Of a stretch of DNA of 6,967 nt, positions 1 to 6,819 are shown piece after piece. Positions within the stretch are counted from its first letter, which is position 1; each line of letters begins with the position of its first letter. Made by a program: the position numbers and the translations under genes. The stretch is from a virus. Its lineage: Duplodnaviria; Heunggongvirae; Uroviricota; Caudoviricetes. The notes under the pieces were generated by a model, which had not been told where the DNA came from, did no database searches, and saw only the letters and a program-made list of their open reading frames with translations. The stretch lies in IMG/VR virus record IMGVR_UViG_2706794683_000011. One strand, given 5' to 3'.

Positions 1-107
1 GGCTGGGACGGAAGTCGCTGTCGTTCTCAAAATCGGTGGAGCTGCATGACAAAGTCATCGGGCATTATCTGAACATAAAACACTATCAATAAGTTGGAGT
101 CATTACC
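1..107 (+). mobile_element. IS1 right-end fragment (last 107 bp of IS1 including the right terminal inverted repeat; rest of element lies beyond window start)
   Basis: Bases 1..107 match the last 107 bp of the complete IS1 at 6195..6301 except one base (pos 4 t versus a at 6198) and end in the IS1 terminus ATCAATAAGTTGGAGTCATTACC. Confidence 0.95.
3..92 (+). CDS. insB: IS1 transposase InsB, C-terminal 29 codons only (5' part outside window)
   Basis: Frame translates [29 protein letters not shown] then stop; same as the C-terminus of the 167-aa insB ORF at 5783..6286 except L here where the internal copy has Q. Confidence 0.85.
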   Translation: MGRKSLSFSKSVELHDKVIGHYLNIKHYQ

Positions 108-497
108 CCAATTTTTTACGTACGTAAACCACTAAATGATATTTGCGAGAATGCTACCGAGTATTGAAAACACCACTACAAATACATAAGCAAATCCCAA
201 CAAATAACCAACAAATAATTTCCAGTGTTATTTTTAGCCGGTTTAAATTGAACCTTCAAATTATAGAGCACTTATAAATAACAGCCGTTAATATAAATTG
301 GCTAATAGATTTATTTTTATTCAGTCAAGAGCCATGAATAGGATTCGATAGAAAAAAGTTCAGATAAAAATAGAGATCTACTTCACAAATCAAACGAGAA
401 ACCAAAACTTACATCTTGAAATAATCACATTGATTAGATGAATATTTATCGCGCAATGACATCATTTTTTAATAATAGTTCAAAAAAAGGGCTCACG

Positions 498-1580
498 ATG
501 AAAAAATTAACAGTGGCAATTTCTGCTGTAGCTGCATCAGTACTGATGGCGATGTCTGCTCAGGCAGCTGAAATTTATAATAAAGACAGTAACAAGCTGG
601 ATCTGTACGGGAAAGTTAATGCTAAGCACTACTTCTCCTCTAATGATGCAGATGATGGTGATACTACTTATGCCCGTCTTGGCTTCAAAGGTGAAACCCA
701 AATCAACGATCAACTGACTGGTTTCGGTCAGTGGGAATATGAATTCAAAGGCAACCGCGCTGAATCTCAAGGTTCCTCCAAAGATAAAACCCGTCTTGCC
801 TTCGCTGGCCTGAAATTCGGTGACTACGGCTCCATCGATTACGGCCGTAACTACGGTGTAGCATACGACATCGGTGCGTGGACTGACGTCCTGCCAGAAT
901 TCGGTGGTGACACTTGGACTCAAACAGATGTGTTCATGACTGGTCGCACCACTGGTGTTGCAACTTATCGTAACAACGACTTCTTTGGTCTGGTTGATGG
1001 TCTGAACTTTGCTGCTCAGTATCAGGGTAAAAATGACCGCACTGACGTAACTGAAGCTAATGGTGATGGTTTCGGTTTCTCCACTACTTATGAGTATGAA
1101 GGATTCGGTGTAGGTGCAACCTATGCTAAATCTGACCGCACTAATAATCAGGTTATCTACGGTAACAACAGCCTGAATGCATCTGGTCAAAATGCTGAAG
1201 TATGGGCAGCTGGTCTGAAATATGATGCGAACAACATCTATCTGGCTACCACCTATTCTGAAACCCAGAACATGACTGTTTTTGGTAATAACCATATTGC
1301 CAACAAAGCACAAAACTTCGAAGTAGTTGCACAATATCAGTTCGACTTCGGTCTGCGTCCGTCCGTTGCTTACCTGCAATCTAAAGGAAAAGACTTGGGT
1401 GCGTGGGGTGATCAGGACCTGGTTGAATATATTGATGTAGGTGCAACCTATTACTTCAACAAAAATATGTCCACTTTTGTTGATTACAAAATCAACCTGA
1501 TTGATAAGAGCGATTTCACGAAAGCATCTGGCGTTGCTACCGATGATATCGTTGCTGTAGGTATGGTTTACCAGTTCTAA
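498..1580 (+). CDS. nmpC: Outer-membrane general porin, OmpC/OmpF/PhoE family, prophage-associated NmpC type (360 aa precursor)
   Basis: Translation starts [39 protein letters not shown]: a typical signal peptide with AQA cleavage site followed by the conserved porin N-terminus. Contains porin hallmarks ([34 protein letters not shown]) and ends in the C-terminal beta-barrel signal VYQF. SD-like AAAGGG precedes ATG 498. The ORF-track start at 438 adds 20 residues ahead of the signal peptide and is probably not used. Assignment by recall of NmpC/OmpF sequences. Confidence 0.9.
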
Positions 1581-1717
1581 TTTGATTACTAAAAGATATG
1601 TTGCGGGAGGCTTTGCCTCCCCAACATATAAGTGGCTCCCTCAAGCCACTTCCTTTAGGAGCACAACCTTGCTTCTAACTATATAAACCTTCTGTTATAT
1701 ATTACCCTTTATTTTTG

Positions 1718-1751
1718 GGGGCGTTGCAACGCCCCATTTTTAATAATTTTT
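1718..1751 (+). terminator. Candidate rho-independent terminator for nmpC (GC hairpin plus T tract)
   Basis: Perfect 18-bp palindrome GGGGCGTTGCAACGCCCC (1718..1735) followed immediately by ATTTTTAATAATTTTT. On the minus strand the hairpin is followed by A-rich sequence, so it is + strand specific. It lies 137 nt after the nmpC stop. Confidence 0.5.
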
Positions 1752-1768
1752 AGTAAACAATTGGCATA

Positions 1769-2152
1769 TTAATTAGAGTTATTAACAACGATATCCATCT
1801 CTAACCGGATATCTAATGCCATTAACATCCCTTCAATTATGCCCTCAGCCTTCTGTAACCTTTTCCCGATATAACCATCAGAGCAGCAATGCTTACCTGC
1901 CAGTGACATGAATGTCATACCGACTACATAATAATCTACTAATAAATCGTGCAAATCGCTGTTGTTCTTTTTCAGACGGGCCATGCACCCGCAAATAATC
2001 ATCGCGTCATCGTCACAACATTGCGGGCGAGATTTTACTTTTGAAGTAATTAATCCCTTAAAACCGGCGGCAATGGACGACCAGGTCACATCTTCATGAT
2101 TATTAGCCGCCCACGCTCCCCAACGCTCAAGAACCATCTGAATATCACGCAT
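1769..2152 (-). CDS. quuD: Prophage late-gene antitermination protein Q homolog (127 aa)
   Basis: Translation [34 protein letters not shown]...[16 protein letters not shown]... matches the DLP12 QuuD (YbcQ) type as I recall it. GGAG lies 7 nt before ATG 2152. The ORF-track start at 2167 is a TTG five codons upstream and probably not the real start. Position after rusA/ylcG fits lambdoid synteny. Confidence 0.85.
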
Positions 2153-2237
2153 CAACTTACTCCACAAAAATCAGACCAGAACGCCAATTACAAGCAAAAA
2201 TCAACAAAACAGTATTAGTTGATTGTTATCTCTGACT

Positions 2238-2378
2238 TCATACTCCTGCTCCTGTCAGGGTTTTGGCGTAATTCTTCAGTATTCGGTAATCGGTCAAAAC
2301 AGAACCGGGGAAACGATATAAGCGCAGATGCCCCCAGCGGTGGCGAAGAAGTTCTGCCATATAAAACTCAAACATCAT
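2238..2378 (-). CDS. ylcG: Small prophage protein between rusA and Q (46 aa), YlcG-like
   Basis: Minus-strand ORF ATGATGTTTGAG... translating [46 protein letters not shown] then stop. Its ATG overlaps the rusA stop (ATGA). Below the ORF-track size cut-off, found by hand translation. Name from size and synteny plus partial recall of the sequence. Confidence 0.55.
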
Positions 2379-2737
2379 TCATTCCCCATTTCGGTGATGG
2401 TCAGTTCCAGCCTCCCACCTTTGGTAACAGGCATCTTCACAACGCGGTAATCAACGACCTGAGCATCATCCAGCCAGAAACCTGCTTTGGTGAGTGCGTC
2501 AAAAGCGGCTTTTTGCAGATTATCCAGGTCACGGCGACGGCGATCCGGCATGTGGCACTCAATACGGATTTTCACTGGCATAGCCAGGCCGATATCCAGC
2601 ATTGCGTTTTTAATGATTCGGGTGACGTTATCGCGGTATGCCTGCCCTTCTGCGCTGATGTGTGTGCGCCCGCGATTATGGCGGTAATAGCGGTTATTGC
2701 TCGGAGGCCAGGGTAATGTGATGCTGTAGGTATTCAC
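2375..2737 (-). CDS. rusA: Holliday-junction resolvase RusA (120 aa)
   Basis: Translation [38 protein letters not shown]...[39 protein letters not shown]... is the RusA endonuclease sequence as recalled. Start codon is GTG (in-frame TAA two codons upstream), preceded by GAGGGGG, and overlaps the ybcO stop as GTGA. Confidence 0.9.
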
Positions 2738-3024
2738 GCCTTAATAACCCCCTCTTTCAGCCAGATAACCTGCGTTCTCGCCATACCTTCCAGCGCGCAT
2801 TCTTTTGCATACTCAGCATCGACAAAATATGTGCGGCGGTCGATTTCGTCGTGACAGGCAGAACATGCAATGGTGGCAATCAGGTCTGGCGGTTTGATAC
2901 CGGTACCGCACAATCCAGCCAGCCGGATATGTGCCAGTACTGACGTTTCAGGATTGCCATTACATACGCCAGGGATTCTTACCTGGCATTCCCGACCACG
3001 CGCTGCTTTTCTCAAATCAGCCAT
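2734..3024 (-). CDS. ybcO: Prophage Cys-rich protein YbcO (DUF1364-type putative nuclease, 96 aa)
   Basis: Translation [64 protein letters not shown]... Strong SD GGAGG lies 5 nt before ATG 3024. The ORF-track start at 3063 adds 13 residues with no SD. Lambdoid nin-region synteny. Confidence 0.85.
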
Positions 3025-3187
3025 GATTCCTCCTTGCTGCCAGTCGCAACCATTTTTTATCAACCAGGCTAGCGGTATATCCGAGCAGTGTTGGTATTTC
3101 GGATGGCTTCAGCTCAGGCTTACGCTTACGACGATTTGATACTCTGTAGATGTGCCCGTTCATGACACGAATAAGCGGTGTAGCCAT
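3017..3187 (-). CDS. ninE: NinE-family small protein (56 aa)
   Basis: Hand translation of minus strand gives [56 protein letters not shown] then stop, which matches lambda-type NinE as recalled. Its ATG overlaps the ybcN stop (TAATG) and its stop overlaps the ybcO start (ATGGCTGA). Missing from the ORF track because of size. Confidence 0.8.
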   Translation of the reverse strand: MATPLIRVMNGHIYRVSNRRKRKPELKPSEIPTLLGYTASLVDKKWLRLAARRNHG

Positions 3188-3642
3188 TACGCCTCCTGCT
3201 TATCGCGCAGCTGCTGGTATTCACAGCTCTGCGGAATTGTCAGGTGGCAGCCGATATTCATCGCCCAGGCTTCGACTTTGCACAGGAAGATGTACATCTC
3301 GCCGGTTTCCAGCTCTGACGTATGGCGGAGGGATTGGACGGTGGTGACCTCGCCGGACACGACATCTACACGGTCTTTGCTTTCGTAGCCGAGATAGGTG
3401 TGCTTCATCGCGTCTTTGACCCACTCAGGCGTAGCGAAGGTCTTGCCGCGGGCGATGAGATATTCGCTGATCTCCGTGTACCACATGTGGCTGAGCGCGT
3501 TCTGCGACAGGCTGCGCTTCTCGCGCCACGGCTTAACCTGCAGGCGTAAGCATTGCCCGGCATCCAGCAATGGCTGAATCTGCTGGCCGATGGCCGCGAA
3601 GTTACCGCGATGGAGTTTGATGCCGTCTACTGGCAGAGTCAT
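3187..3642 (-). CDS. ybcN: NinB/YbcN-family prophage protein (151 aa)
   Basis: Translation MTLPVDGIKLHRGNFAAIGQQIQPLLDAGQCLRLQVKPWREKRSLSQNALSHMWYTEISEYL... recalled as DLP12 YbcN (NinB-like, R.LSQN motif). SD GGGAGG lies before ATG 3642. Confidence 0.85.
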   Translation of the reverse strand: MTLPVDGIKLHRGNFAAIGQQIQPLLDAGQCLRLQVKPWREKRSLSQNALSHMWYTEISEYLIARGKTFATPEWVKDAMKHTYLGYESKDRVDVVSGEVTTVQSLRHTSELETGEMYIFLCKVEAWAMNIGCHLTIPQSCEYQQLRDKQEA

Positions 3643-3734
3643 ACGGCCTCCCTAACGGAAACCGCAGAATGCAGAAAATCGCAGGTGCATTTCTGCATCT
3701 GTGACAAGGTGATGAGTTCAGATTGTGGTCGCAT
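3639..3734 (-). CDS. Small ORF (31 aa) immediately upstream of and translationally coupled to ybcN; occupies the ylcH position of DLP12
   Basis: Minus-strand ATG 3734 follows an in-frame TAA and the SD AAGGGGA. Translation is MRPQSELITLSQMQKCTCDFLHSAVSVREAV; its TGA overlaps the ybcN ATG (GTATGACT). Sequence not recognised from memory, so called on position and coupling only. Confidence 0.4.
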   Translation of the reverse strand: MRPQSELITLSQMQKCTCDFLHSAVSVREAV

Positions 3735-3906
3735 TTAAGTCCCCTTAAATGCGCAGAAGTCACCGGAGTTGTTCAGGCTCCGATGAGAGGATTATGGCGG
3801 ATTGATTACGATAAATCAAAACTATCTTGAAGCCAAAACAGTGATCTTCGCTTTAAAAACCTTGTATACTTTCACCTAATCACAGCCAGAACTATGGATC
3901 TAACCA

Positions 3907-4284
3907 ATGACCAACAAAGAAAACAAAGATAAATATATTAACAAGTTCAAGAAAGAGCTTTCAAAATATATACAACCAACTGCTGGAGTGGACATTCAAT
4001 TATTTAACTCTAAGGATGGTGGTGGTGTAATTAAAGCCACTTTGAATAGAAGTGGAAAAAGAAAATCATCTATTGCTGGTAATTTTACTAAATTAGGTGA
4101 GGCAATTACCTCGAGTGGGCAGAGGGTTTTTGGTGGTGATCTATCAAATGTGAATTTTTACGGAACAAATACGATTTTTGATGGAGATACAATATTTTTA
4201 ATTAAATCACCTGATTCAGAGGAGTGGTCATCACAAAAAGCTTCCAAAGACGTAGAGGGCATCGTATTTGGAGGGAAAAAATGA
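3907..4284 (+). CDS. Hypothetical soluble protein (125 aa), AT-rich cargo gene, no family assigned
   Basis: Clean ORF: ATG 3907 directly follows an in-frame TAA. Lys-rich N-terminus MTNKENKDKYINKFKKELSKY, Gly-rich segments GGGVIKATLNRSGKRK and QRVFGGDLSNVNFYGTNTIFDGDTIFLI, C-terminus IVFGGKK. No signal peptide or hydrophobic helix. No clear SD. G+C visibly lower than flanking prophage genes. Confidence 0.55.
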   Translation: MTNKENKDKYINKFKKELSKYIQPTAGVDIQLFNSKDGGGVIKATLNRSGKRKSSIAGNFTKLGEAITSSGQRVFGGDLSNVNFYGTNTIFDGDTIFLIKSPDSEEWSSQKASKDVEGIVFGGKK

Positions 4285-4366
4285 TTAACATTACTACTAA
4301 GGATGCACTCAAGTCAGTGGTGAAGTAAGAGATCTAGTAATTCTTCTTGAAACTGATGGAAAAACG

Positions 4367-4708
4367 GTGTCTGATTATTTGCAGCCAATCCCTCCCAAAA
4401 AAGATACACACTGGAGCATGATTTTCATTCCGGTAGCAATTTATATACTACTTAATCTTGTATACATTATTGCTCACCCATTATTTCCTGAAAAATATCT
4501 AAAAACATCAACATCTATATTTCTATTCATTTCCTTCATATTAAGTGCAATAGTAGCATATTTTGTTTTCCATAAGCATAAATCTGCCACTCTATCCATA
4601 TGCAGCTTAGTGTTCTTAGTGTTAATTGTAGGTGCTAACGTAGGGTTTATCAGTTACAGCGACCTAACACAAAAAGCGACGCAAAAATTAGATAGTTTGT
4701 CTAAATAA
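4367..4708 (+). CDS. Hypothetical small integral membrane protein, three predicted TM helices (113 aa from GTG 4367, or 96 aa from ATG 4418)
   Basis: Three hydrophobic stretches (IFIPVAIYILLNLVYIIA, IFLFISFILSAIVAYFVF, LSICSLVFLVLIVGANVGFI) followed by a charged tail SYSDLTQKATQKLDSLSK. Frame is open from 4301. The first canonical start is GTG 4367 (weak SD); ATG 4418 has GGAG only 1 nt upstream. Start is therefore uncertain. Confidence 0.5.
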   Translation: MSDYLQPIPPKKDTHWSMIFIPVAIYILLNLVYIIAHPLFPEKYLKTSTSIFLFISFILSAIVAYFVFHKHKSATLSICSLVFLVLIVGANVGFISYSDLTQKATQKLDSLSK

Positions 4709-4815
4709 TTATGTTGCCATGCGAAGTATGCATGGCTGCATGTCTGCCTTCCATTTAAAATGGGCTAAGACCTATAACCCTAAATATTATTCTTTATTAT
4801 CTTCTTTACCACTTC

Positions 4816-5046
4816 GGTGATGCTGCCAACTTACTGATTTAGTGTATGATGGTGTTTTTGAGGTGCTCCAGTGGCTTCTGTTTCTATCAGCTGTCCCTCC
4901 TGTTCAGCTACTGACGGGGTGGTGCGTAACGGCAAAAGCACTGCCGGACATCAGCGCTATCTCTGCTCTCACTGCCGTAAAACATGGCAACTGCAGTTCA
5001 CTTACACCGCTTCTCAACCCGGTACGCACCAGAAAATCATTGATAT
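4816..5046 (+). mobile_element. IS1 left-end fragment (first 231 bp: left inverted repeat and 5' part of insA), truncated by IS21-family sequence
   Basis: 4816..5046 is identical to 5534..5764 of the complete IS1 and begins with the IS1 terminus GGTGATGCTGCCAACTTACTGAT. Identity stops after ...CATTGATAT, where the complete copy continues GGCCATG and this copy continues TGTCAGCGCC. Confidence 0.9.
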
Positions 5047-5287
5047 TGTCAGCGCCAGTGATATAAGACGGTAATTCGCCATTTGGATTGTCCGCTCCAC
5101 CCAACATGTTGTTTCCTTAAGGTTCTCACACCAGAAAGGACATCAACATGCTGAGCAGAGAGGACTTTTACATGATAAAGCAAATGCACCAGCAGGGCGC
5201 GTACATCGTCGATATTGCGACTCAGATTGGTTGCTCTGAACGGACGGTCAGACGCTACCTCAAATACCCTGAACCGCCAGCCAGAAT
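5047..5287 (+). mobile_element. IS21-family element, left end with 5' part of istA (IS100/IS21-like); runs into assembly gap
   Basis: Sequence begins TGTCAGCGCCAGTG (TG... terminus typical of the IS21 family, from memory). About 100 bp further in, an ORF starts MLSREDFYMIKQMHQQGAYIVDIATQIGCSERTVRRYLKYPEPPAR, which I recognise as the helix-turn-helix N-terminus of IS21-family IstA transposases. Confidence 0.75.
5148..5287 (+). CDS. istA: IS21-family transposase IstA, N-terminal 46 codons (remainder in gap)
   Basis: See the IS21-family element above. The ORF-track extension 5148..5555 is translation through N bases and is not real. Confidence 0.75.
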
Positions 5288-5533
5288 NNNNNNNNNNNNN
5301 NNNNNNNNNNNNNNNNNNNNNNNNNNNNNNNNNNNNNNNNNNNNNNNNNNNNNNNNNNNNNNNNNNNNNNNNNNNNNNNNNNNNNNNNNNNNNNNNNNNN
5401 NNNNNNNNNNNNNNNNNNNNNNNNNNNNNNNNNNNNNNNNNNNNNNNNNNNNNNNNNNNNNNNNNNNNNNNNNNNNNNNNNNNNNNNNNNNNNNNNNNNN
5501 NNNNNNNNNNNNNNNNNNNNNNNNNNNNNNNNN
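5288..5533. other. Assembly gap (246 N)
   Basis: Uninterrupted run of n from 5288 to 5533. It is bounded on the left by IS21-family sequence and on the right by the first base of an IS1 copy. Confidence 0.99.
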
Positions 5534-5588
5534 GGTGATGCTGCCAACTTACTGATTTAGTGTATGATGGTGTTTTTGAGGTGCTCCA

Positions 5589-5864
5589 GTGGCTTCTGTT
5601 TCTATCAGCTGTCCCTCCTGTTCAGCTACTGACGGGGTGGTGCGTAACGGCAAAAGCACTGCCGGACATCAGCGCTATCTCTGCTCTCACTGCCGTAAAA
5701 CATGGCAACTGCAGTTCACTTACACCGCTTCTCAACCCGGTACGCACCAGAAAATCATTGATATGGCCATGAATGGCGTTGGATGCCGGGCAACTGCACG
5801 CATTATGGGCGTTGGCCTCAACACGATTTTACGTCACTTAAAAAACTCAGGCCGCAGTCGGTAA
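5589..5864 (+). CDS. insA: IS1 protein InsA (91 aa)
   Basis: Translation [91 protein letters not shown]. Confidence 0.92.
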
Positions 5865-6286
5865 CCTCGCGCATACAGCCGGGCAGTGACGTCATCGTCT
5901 GCGCGGAAATGGACGAACAGTGGGGCTATGTCGGGGCTAAATCGCGCCAGCGCTGGCTGTTTTACGCGTATGACAGTCTCCGGAAGACGGTTGTTGCGCA
6001 CGTATTCGGTGAACGCACTATGGCGACGCTGGGGCGTCTTATGAGCCTGCTGTCACCCTTTGACGTGGTGATATGGATGACGGATGGCTGGCCGCTGTAT
6101 GAATCCCGCCTGAAGGGAAAGCTGCACGTAATCAGCAAGCGATATACGCAGCGAATTGAGCGGCATAACCTGAATCTGAGGCAGCACCTGGCACGGCAGG
6201 GACGGAAGTCGCTGTCGTTCTCAAAATCGGTGGAGCTGCATGACAAAGTCATCGGGCATTATCTGAACATAAAACACTATCAATAA
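5783..6286 (+). CDS. insB: IS1 InsB ORF (167 aa; normally expressed as InsAB' fusion by -1 frameshift)
   Basis: Translation [53 protein letters not shown]...HYLNIKHYQ, in the -1 frame relative to insA. Confidence 0.92.
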
Positions 6287-6441
6287 GTTGGAGTCATTAC
6301 CCGATTATCCGACTTATTAAAAATGCCTGTTTAAAATTATATAATTTAGCACATACCGCAACCAACTCCCACCTTAAACCAACTGGTCCGGATAATTCAG
6401 ATGTTCTCCTGTTCAAAAAGCTATTCTCCCCTTCGAAATTA

Positions 6442-6819
6442 ATGACAATTATCGGTGATGAAATTCCTCTTATATCTGAAAAACAGTCGCTTTCAAAGGT
6501 GCTTTTAAATGATGAGAATAATGAACTGAGTGATGGTACAAACTTCTGGGATAAAAATCGTCAATTAACCACAGATGAAATAGCTTGCTATCTTCAGAAG
6601 ATCGCCGCTAATGCAAAAAATACTCAAGTCAATTATCCTACTGGTCTCTACGTCCCCTACTCCACCAGAACTCACCTGGAAGACGCTCTCAATGAAAATA
6701 TTAAGAGCGATCCATCATGGCCGAATGAAGTCCAGTTATTCCCCATAAATACTGGCGGACACTGGATATTAGTTTCGCTACAGAAAATAGTAAATAAAAA
6801 AATAATAAACTACAAATAA
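6442..6819 (+). CDS. AT-rich orphan ORF (125 aa from first ATG); probable remnant of a larger gene; motif pattern reminiscent of Ulp1/CE-clan cysteine peptidases (tentative)
   Basis: No SD before ATG 6442, and the reading frame is open without a stop from 6244 across the IS1 boundary (6301) into the ORF. Contains [20 protein letters not shown] and, about 70 residues later, [15 protein letters not shown]...KKIINY. This resembles the Ulp1 pattern W-LND...IFIPIN..SHWALGIID.KKKTIGY (catalytic His in the HW motif), but the ORF stops about where the catalytic Asp and Cys would follow. Confidence 0.45.

Follow-up and report, generated by a model that had tools for sequence, protein, structure and literature searches.

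The window analyzed here, a stretch of 6,967 nt recorded in IMG/VR as virus IMGVR_UViG_2706794683_000011, is a DLP12-like lambdoid prophage remnant that is split up by copies of the insertion sequence IS1. Between the prophage genes ybcN and P it holds a cassette of two small genes, here called ORF1 and ORF2 (ORF, open reading frame), and we find that this cassette is very probably a copy of a conserved mobile two-gene module whose second gene has been inactivated in the window. An earlier reading made from the sequence alone (hereafter the sequence-only reading) had picked out the region as an AT-rich island, and the GC content does fall from 0.55-0.60 at positions 3151-3750 to 0.32-0.37 at 3751-4800. 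Cassette-specific DNA runs from about 3822 to 4786, limits that we set because the common prophage backbone stops near 3821 and the stop codon of P, on the minus strand, occupies 4787-4789. The features of the cassette are the following (aa, amino acids; TM, transmembrane).

3822-3906, plus strand: cassette-specific leader 5' of ORF1, containing TATACT at 3865-3870; a candidate promoter only
3907-4284, plus strand: ORF1, intact, encoding a hydrophilic cytoplasmic protein of 125 aa (identical to WP_000182282; phrog_18061)
4270-4275, plus strand: GGAGGG, the Shine-Dalgarno sequence of ORF2, within the last ORF1 codons and 5 nt before the ATG at 4281
4281-4708, plus strand: ORF2 pseudogene; the intact form (WP_000608370-type; phrog_16940) is a 142-aa protein with a 36-aa N-terminal domain and three TM helices
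4367-4708, plus strand: out-of-frame 3' remnant of ORF2, residues 30-142, with TM1 at about 4418-4477, TM2 at about 4511-4570, and TM3 at about 4589-4651, then a charged tail
4716-4736, plus strand: stem-loop just after the ORF2 stop codon (GCCATGC / GCATGGC) with no T-tract, conserved at the end of a 72%-identical cassette

ORF1 is as the sequence-only reading described it, an intact gene for a hydrophilic protein that runs opposite to the prophage operon (ybcN/ninE/ybcO/rusA/quuD), and its product has no signal peptide or hydrophobic segment. The same reading gave the second gene as 4367/4418-4708. A reading frame with three helices and a charged tail does exist there, but it is not the whole gene; it is the out-of-frame 3' part of the 142-aa ORF2. 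Among the matches listed, 44 of the 46 near-identical E. coli copies carry an intact ORF2, which starts at an ATG that overlaps the ORF1 stop codon (ATGA; window position 4281). In the window one G is missing after 4305 (GATGGCA to GATGCA), and the frame that opens at 4281 ends after 15 codons at the TAA at 4326-4328. Frameshifts in near-identical relatives had been named beforehand as a sign against a working system; the copy that bears such a frameshift is that of the window itself. What is lost are residues 1-36 of the ORF2 protein (MINITTKDGTQVSGEVRDLVILLETDGKTVSDYLQP), a nearly invariant segment and the best-conserved stretch of the protein; of the 142 positions of the PHROG profile of the family, the window ORF covers only 30-142. 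The possible restart codons (GTG at 4367 and ATG at 4418) have ribosome-binding sequences that, as read from the sequence, are weak or badly spaced, and a restart at either would still leave out the conserved N-terminal domain.

We considered a sequencing error as the source of the frameshift and rejected it, because Shigella sonnei entries under several accessions give exactly the truncated 113-aa product, which recurs on 100 contigs of that species. An IMG/VR contig identical to window positions 1-5286 has the same ORF2 frameshift. The deletion is therefore a real lesion that is fixed in S. sonnei, and the window copy of the module is a relic in which ORF1 alone is still intact. The S. sonnei copy should be annotated as a pseudogene in an IS1-eroded prophage and not as a functional two-gene system; it is the intact family, and not the window copy, that deserves interest. 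Inactivation of ORF2 has also occurred independently in a 92%-identical Enterobacter-type cassette from IMG/VR (locus L041 in our numbering, from about position 6375), where the gene is shortened to 73 aa. ORF1 has been lost elsewhere. In E. coli CV839-06 (L002 4303-5074; also L046), IS1 is inserted at the equivalent of window positions 4043-4052, with flanking matches that overlap by about 10 bases, consistent with target duplication; in strain Es_ST80 (L004 3028-3273), a 1-bp deletion leaves an ORF1 of 81 aa. Both strains retain an intact ORF2.

To place the window copy among its relatives, we compared it with complete E. coli genomes. The cassette is found in 48 of 5426 of them (0.9%), as 46 copies with at least 99% identity and 2 copies with 72% identity; E. 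coli 536 and A7 are among the strains with intact alleles. Another lambdoid prophage harbors the 72% copy, but the slot is the same, with the replication/ren genes on one side and the NinB-slot gene on the other, and here too the cassette opposes the operon. It keeps the lengths of both genes (378 and 429 bp) and their 4-bp overlap. Together, the patchy occurrence and the second prophage bear out the earlier proposal of a horizontally acquired moron. Relative to the 72%-identical cassette, the ratio of nonsynonymous to synonymous substitution rates (dN/dS) is 0.084 for ORF1 and 0.097 for ORF2, with dS saturated, and both genes are under strong purifying selection. The ATGA overlap together with the GGAGGG sequence suggests that translation of ORF2 is coupled to that of ORF1. 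The stem-loop that follows ORF2 folds with a free energy (dG) of -16.6 kcal/mol (z = -2.7) in the window and of -27.5 kcal/mol (z = -6.9) in the 72%-identical cassette; an Rfam scan of the window found no RNA family.

Word-indexed protein searches reached only enterobacterial relatives, all labelled hypothetical, and the distant members were found by an exhaustive profile search with ORF1. At 50% identity the ORF1 family has 111 representatives, nearly all of them full-length at 120-135 aa, with near-invariant residues Y10, G39, F84, G86, T87, K100, W107 and D115. Using a 10-sequence subset of the 71-sequence family alignment, we located genome loci of distant relatives, and ORF1 relatives are found in Deltaproteobacteria, Acidobacteriota, Synechococcus, Myxococcales, Betaproteobacteria, Bacteroides, Flavobacteriia, IMG/VR viral contigs and metagenomes. 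In nearly all distant loci that were read, a gene for a small membrane protein lies directly 3' of the ORF1 homolog, usually with a 4-bp overlap; these loci comprise 11 of 15 genome loci with the pair (the other 4 being cut or degraded), 9 viral loci and the places of 11 further family members. The downstream partner is 120-155 aa long and has a short N-terminal domain (K..EG..E[IV]....G.....DY..P) followed by three hydrophobic helices. When the profile of the enterobacterial ORF2 family was aligned with that of the downstream partners (hhalign), the probability was 96.4% and the E-value 1.1e-9. The homologous gene order is thus kept in distant loci, and the two genes travel as a pair. In the window, ORF1 has the motifs of the family (Y10, G39, F84-G-T-N, K100, W107, D115); ORF2 is homologous to its family, with its N-terminal domain disjoined from the TM part by the frameshift.

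Effector swapping occurs in this family, as an HNH fusion and as a 1-TM variant of the partner. For instance, a 447-aa metagenomic protein (P0104; L047 246-1589, on contigs of 1.7 kb) begins with an ORF1-like domain, which is fused to an HNH endonuclease (Pfam E = 1.3e-12) and a C-terminal region of about 200 aa that belongs to no family. In a second example (L054 3480-4279, also L055), the ORF1 homolog follows an AAA_15/AAA_21/DUF2813 ATPase and is itself followed by a 135-aa 1-TM coiled-coil partner in place of the 3-TM protein. An exact-sequence look-up placed the 125-aa ORF1 protein and the unrelated 142-aa ORF2 protein in one 90%-identity cluster of 197 members, which may be a clustering artefact.

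From the shallow enterobacterial alignment, the AlphaFold2 model of ORF1 is poor (predicted local distance difference test, pLDDT, of 54), with the order alpha-beta-beta-alpha-beta-beta-alpha, and a fold search with it gave no significant structural neighbor. The model of ORF2, built from an equally shallow enterobacterial alignment, is better (pLDDT 74) and has a small beta-hairpin and helix, both at low confidence, followed by helices at residues 46-68, 71-100 and 103-141; the fold search with it likewise returned no structural neighbor. The loop between TM2 and TM3 is basic (HKHK; RFK in distant members), lysines precede TM1, and the intact protein ends in a short amphipathic tail. By the positive-inside rule, we infer an N-in, C-out topology in which the N-terminal domain would be cytoplasmic and the tail outside.

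The sequence-only reading could assign neither protein to a family, and neither could we: scans of Pfam, NCBIfam and PADLOC v2.0.0 gave no family match for either protein or for their families, and profile searches of the Protein Data Bank (PDB) by sequence gave nothing below an E-value of 0.02. In PHROGs there were only two matches, both to families of unknown function (phrog_18061 and phrog_16940), and a DNA search of the GenBank phage collection found no match. In the literature, WP_000182282 and WP_000608370 appear in no paper that we found, and we found no description of the pair in a search that did not cover Brenes & Laub 2025. One source labels the 142-aa protein as a "VIT1/CCC1 family predicted Fe2+/Mn2+ transporter". 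We rejected this assignment, as neither VIT1 nor any other transporter family is among the Pfam matches even at E-values up to 1. The label is nevertheless one of the points that speak for a membrane-associated accessory function outside phage conflict, such as a role in ion or metal handling, in the response to envelope stress or as an adaptor in signalling, with the pair carried as host-fitness cargo. Other points are a weak, sub-threshold similarity to the membrane domains of 7TM receptors, the position of some loci between housekeeping genes, and the presence of non-defense cargo (emrE, ybcL, ybcM) in the same prophage region of K-12. However, the 7TMR-DISM matches fall under the curated cut-off and are typical of hydrophobic helices, and we know of no transporter in which a protein of 125-150 aa with three TM helices works with a cytoplasmic partner. 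Patchy spread in 0.9% of E. coli genomes, together with the genomic contexts described below, also points to conflict systems, and we regard a function of this kind as unlikely.

We next turned to the genes that accompany the relatives of the pair. Restriction-modification (R-M) and bacteriophage exclusion (BREX) systems are among them, and the contexts are the following.

Relative directly upstream of BrxA and BrxB (BREX; L005)
Relative directly after HsdM and HsdS (type I R-M; L011)
Relative between type III Mod and Res, on the same strand (L013)
Relative after the AAA_15/AAA_21/DUF2813 ATPase, in the locus with the 1-TM variant partner
Relatives in prophages near integrases and Dcm-type methylases
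Relative in a prophage that also carries BstA
Relative two genes from SieB
Relatives beside toxin-antitoxin genes (PIN, DUF4160/DUF2442, HigB-like, Xre-MbcA)
Relative with transposases on both flanks
Relative on a mobilisable MobC/relaxase plasmid
Diverged paralogous pair (31% identity; 124 aa and 152-154 aa, the latter with 3 TM) in the P2 gpA-gpQ hotspot (L062 7007-7836, E. coli EC11; L057-L060 8001-8836)

Some relatives thus have defense genes or a defense hotspot for company (a BREX system, R-M systems of types I and III, the ATPase, the P2 hotspot, BstA or SieB), in a set of about 25 contexts that has no matched background and in which 3 loci have housekeeping neighbors only. This pattern fits cargo that serves in defense or in conflict between mobile elements. 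Of the 5426 E. coli genomes, 17 have the P2-hotspot pair, as do other Enterobacteriaceae; its neighbors there are variable OLD-type, nuclease, RES or GAPS4 genes, and the P2 gpA-gpQ interval has been defined as a defense hotspot (Rousset et al. 2022, PMC9122126). In this paralog, the RefSeq start of ORF1 lies 14 codons downstream of the start that is consistent with the family.

Based on these neighborhoods, we propose that window positions 3822-4786 hold a decayed copy of a conserved mobile operon whose intact form is a phage-defense candidate composed of a sensor and a membrane effector (probability of about 0.5). That the intact module is an anti-phage system at all rests on gene neighborhood, and we put it at or slightly short of an even chance. 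The fullest version of the proposal is more tentative: the intact pair may be an undescribed, phylum-spanning anti-phage system in which a sensor or regulator of about 125 aa, of a new fold family, is joined to a 3-TM effector that is sometimes rewired to an HNH nuclease, and which is often embedded in R-M/BREX operons and prophage hotspots. In such a system, the ORF1 protein would sense infection or regulate its partner by binding the cytoplasmic N-terminal domain of the ORF2 protein. Upon infection, and in the manner of RexAB and other TM-effector systems, the ORF2 protein would depolarize or otherwise compromise the membrane, or would block entry, and the competing phage would thereby be aborted or excluded. 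Where the pair is embedded in R-M/BREX operons and prophage hotspots, it could serve as a second-line guard.

Several observations weigh against this proposal. The roles of sensor and effector are assigned by analogy only, because of the low quality of the ORF1 model and the lack of any significant match in the fold searches, and we found no homology to any validated defense protein. Matches in PADLOC-DB v2.0.0 are at noise level (best E-values of 0.002-0.17) for ORF1, ORF2, 71 members of the ORF1 family and 31 members of the ORF2 family, and the accessions were not found in the DefensePredictor supplements. Table S5A of Rousset et al. 2022 (PMC9122126) gives the P2-type pair only as "hypothetical + hypothetical", and in the article text that was searched we found the pair neither among the curated nor among the tested systems. 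The sample of neighborhoods is small, with about 25 independent contexts and no matched background, and at 3 of the 12 genome loci with a readable neighborhood (L006, L007 and L017) the neighbors are housekeeping genes only. A promoter scan upstream of ORF1 found no convincing plus-strand promoter: the hexamer TATACT, which had been read as -10-like, is present at 3865-3870 but has no acceptable -35 partner, and the leader cannot be aligned with the upstream region of the 72%-identical cassette. Lastly, the loss of ORF2 in S. sonnei means that the gene is dispensable there.

That loss also bears on a different explanation, a toxin-antitoxin or addiction module in which the 3-TM protein would be a membrane-depolarizing toxin and the ORF1 protein its cytoplasmic antitoxin (or the reverse), stabilizing the prophage, plasmid or island that carries them. 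Small membrane toxins are an established class, the two genes are small, translationally coupled and found on mobile elements that include a small mobilisable plasmid, and known toxin-antitoxin genes often adjoin the relatives. However, ORF1 has been knocked out naturally with ORF2 intact (IS1 in CV839-06, a frameshift in Es_ST80), and ORF2 has been knocked out with ORF1 intact in S. sonnei. These single knock-outs of each gene argue that neither is an obligatory antidote, although a polar effect of the ORF1 disruption on ORF2, or lack of expression, may also account for them. They likewise weaken the toxin/immunity pair that the sequence-only reading had put forward. Same-strand embedding in R-M/BREX operons and the HNH fusion fit defense better, and we consider an addiction module doubtful. 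Many abortive-infection systems are themselves toxin-antitoxin-like, so that the toxin-antitoxin and defense explanations are compatible.

A second alternative concerns the mode of protection. The pair might act by superinfection exclusion, with DNA entry blocked at the inner membrane as by T4 Imm/Sp, P22 SieA or HK97 gp15, and not by abortive-infection killing. Consistent with this, the pair is prophage cargo that opposes the lytic operon, an arrangement suited to expression in the lysogen; one of its products is an inner-membrane protein, and in one locus the pair lies two genes from SieB. Yet a phage-specific entry blocker would not be expected to have a conserved partner in the cytoplasm, a cytoplasmic N-terminal domain or an HNH fusion, or to lie in chromosomal R-M/BREX operons outside prophages, and we found no similarity to the Sie, Imm or Sp families. 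We therefore judge it quite unlikely that the pair acts in this way.

The membrane protein had also been given a holin-like role as an alternative, and the presence in a prophage of a small protein that has three hydrophobic helices and ends in a charged tail does recall a holin or antiholin. Here the evidence is contradictory to the idea. The prophage has its own lysis cassette (essD, rrrD and rz), which in a near-identical E. coli locus lies downstream of quuD and the porin gene, and the pair is transcribed against both the late and the early operons. Homologs occur without any endolysin in non-phage R-M/BREX loci, on a plasmid and between housekeeping genes, and no holin family was matched in Pfam or PHROGs. 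We reject a lysis role as scarcely credible.

A comparison with described systems helps to define the defense candidate. A close parallel in logic, and the one on which the sequence-only reading had based its idea of a two-component exclusion or abortive-infection layout, is lambda RexA/RexB. As in Rex, a soluble protein is combined with a small inner-membrane protein of about 140 aa, and the two are prophage cargo expressed apart from the lytic operon and dispensable for the phage, with exclusion of other phages as the expected role. The genomic company of the relatives fits a defense-type module, but the window itself holds no working pair, ORF2 being frameshifted. The differences from Rex are considerable. 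There is no sequence or profile homology (Pfam, PHROGs and PADLOC, with 71 and 31 relatives included), and the membrane protein has 3 TM helices and an N-terminal cytoplasmic domain, compared with 4 TM helices in RexB, and the soluble partner has 125 aa, compared with 279 aa in RexA. Moreover, the pair lies opposite to the early operon in the P-ninB slot (elsewhere in the P2 gpA-gpQ slot or in R-M/BREX loci), whereas Rex lies in the immunity region and is co-transcribed with the repressor, and the pair is found across many phyla, unlike RexA/RexB.

In position, some relatives recall PrrC and RloC: they lie in same-strand R-M operons (after hsdM-hsdS, or between type III mod and res) or upstream of brxA-brxB, which is the classic place of a second-line guard. 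PrrC and RloC, however, are single large anticodon nucleases with an ATPase domain, whereas the pair consists of two small proteins, has a membrane component and, except for the one HNH fusion, has no nuclease motif; in addition, among the 12 genome loci whose neighborhood could be read, no more than 3 show embedding in R-M/BREX. The 31%-identical pair in the P2 hotspot invites comparison with the cargo of the P2 gpA-gpQ and P4 hotspots (HAD-hydrolase + 3TM, old/tin; PMC9122126), in which small membrane proteins have been read as suicide effectors. The soluble partner of our pair differs from that of the HAD-hydrolase + 3TM system in being neither a HAD hydrolase nor any other recognized enzyme. 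A membrane protein beside a cytoplasmic partner in defense islands is also seen in Kiwa (KwaA with 4 TM helices and KwaB with DUF4868) and in the TM effectors of CBASS, Pycsar and retrons, but there is no homology, the pair has no cyclase, reverse transcriptase or DUF4868, and both of its proteins are much smaller. Overall, the pair is a candidate that may resemble RexAB-type or hotspot-cargo two-component systems in logic, with no homology, a different number of TM helices and a different locus.

If the intact pair is indeed a defense system, it would add to the membrane-effector immune systems a compact module of about 800 bp, made of two protein families that are annotated nowhere, and, being small and tractable, could serve as a model for the gating of a minimal membrane effector by its soluble partner. 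The module extends from Enterobacteriaceae to Bacteroidota, cyanobacteria and Deltaproteobacteria. In lambdoid prophages, the P-ninB slot is a further cargo site able to hold defense-like genes, beside the established P2/P4 hotspots.

The remaining features of the window describe the prophage in which this cassette decayed. They were identified from the ORF list and the annotation of near-identical E. coli loci, unless stated otherwise.

438-1580, plus strand: porin gene (nmpC/ompC-like)
1769-2167, minus strand: quuD
2375-2737, minus strand: rusA
Minus strand, with quuD, rusA and ybcN: ylcG, ybcO and ninE (from the annotation of near-identical E. coli loci)
3187-3642, minus strand: ybcN
3660-3821, minus strand: conserved lambdoid backbone (ylcH-like stretch) upstream of ybcN, at the left edge of the cassette-specific DNA
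4787-4812, minus strand: last codons of the replication gene P, interrupted by IS1, at the right edge of the cassette slot (coordinates carried over by alignment from the annotated near-identical locus L001, with P at 7039-7752)
4813-5046, plus strand: IS1 fragment in place of the remaining prophage early region (from BLAST against the IS1 copy of the E. coli CV839-06 locus and InsA-type ORFs)
1-107, 4813-5046, 5534-6301 and 6858-6967: IS1 pieces, four in 7 kb
5288-5533: run of N

With window positions 3643-4815 as the query, about 3000 E. coli genomes match only the backbone stretch at 3660-3821, within which a ylcH-type small ORF is annotated in relatives. In the DLP12 prophage of K-12, the slot directly upstream of ybcN holds ybcL-ybcM-ylcH. 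The cassette had therefore been placed correctly in the ybcL/ybcM slot; the K-12 genes, however, share the strand of ybcN, whereas the cassette genes oppose it. IS1 homology begins at 4813, in agreement with the IS1 that had been noted at the end of the island. This IS1 is itself broken at 5046 by another element, which occupies the stretch 5047-5287 and whose first ORF (5148-5285) encodes a transposase-type helix-turn-helix. The prophage early region beyond the last P codons is gone, and the IS1 load fits a Shigella genome. The DLP12 porin gene at 438-1580 is uninterrupted in the window, whereas in K-12 it is split by IS5 (locus L071 8530-10826). Finally, the plus-strand ORF at 6442-6819 is a fragment of an ElaD/SseL-like deubiquitinase (C48/Ulp1 peptidase; PF22102, E = 1.6e-14; Peptidase_C48, E = 2e-06), of which only the first half of the domain is present before the IS1 copy at 6858-6967.

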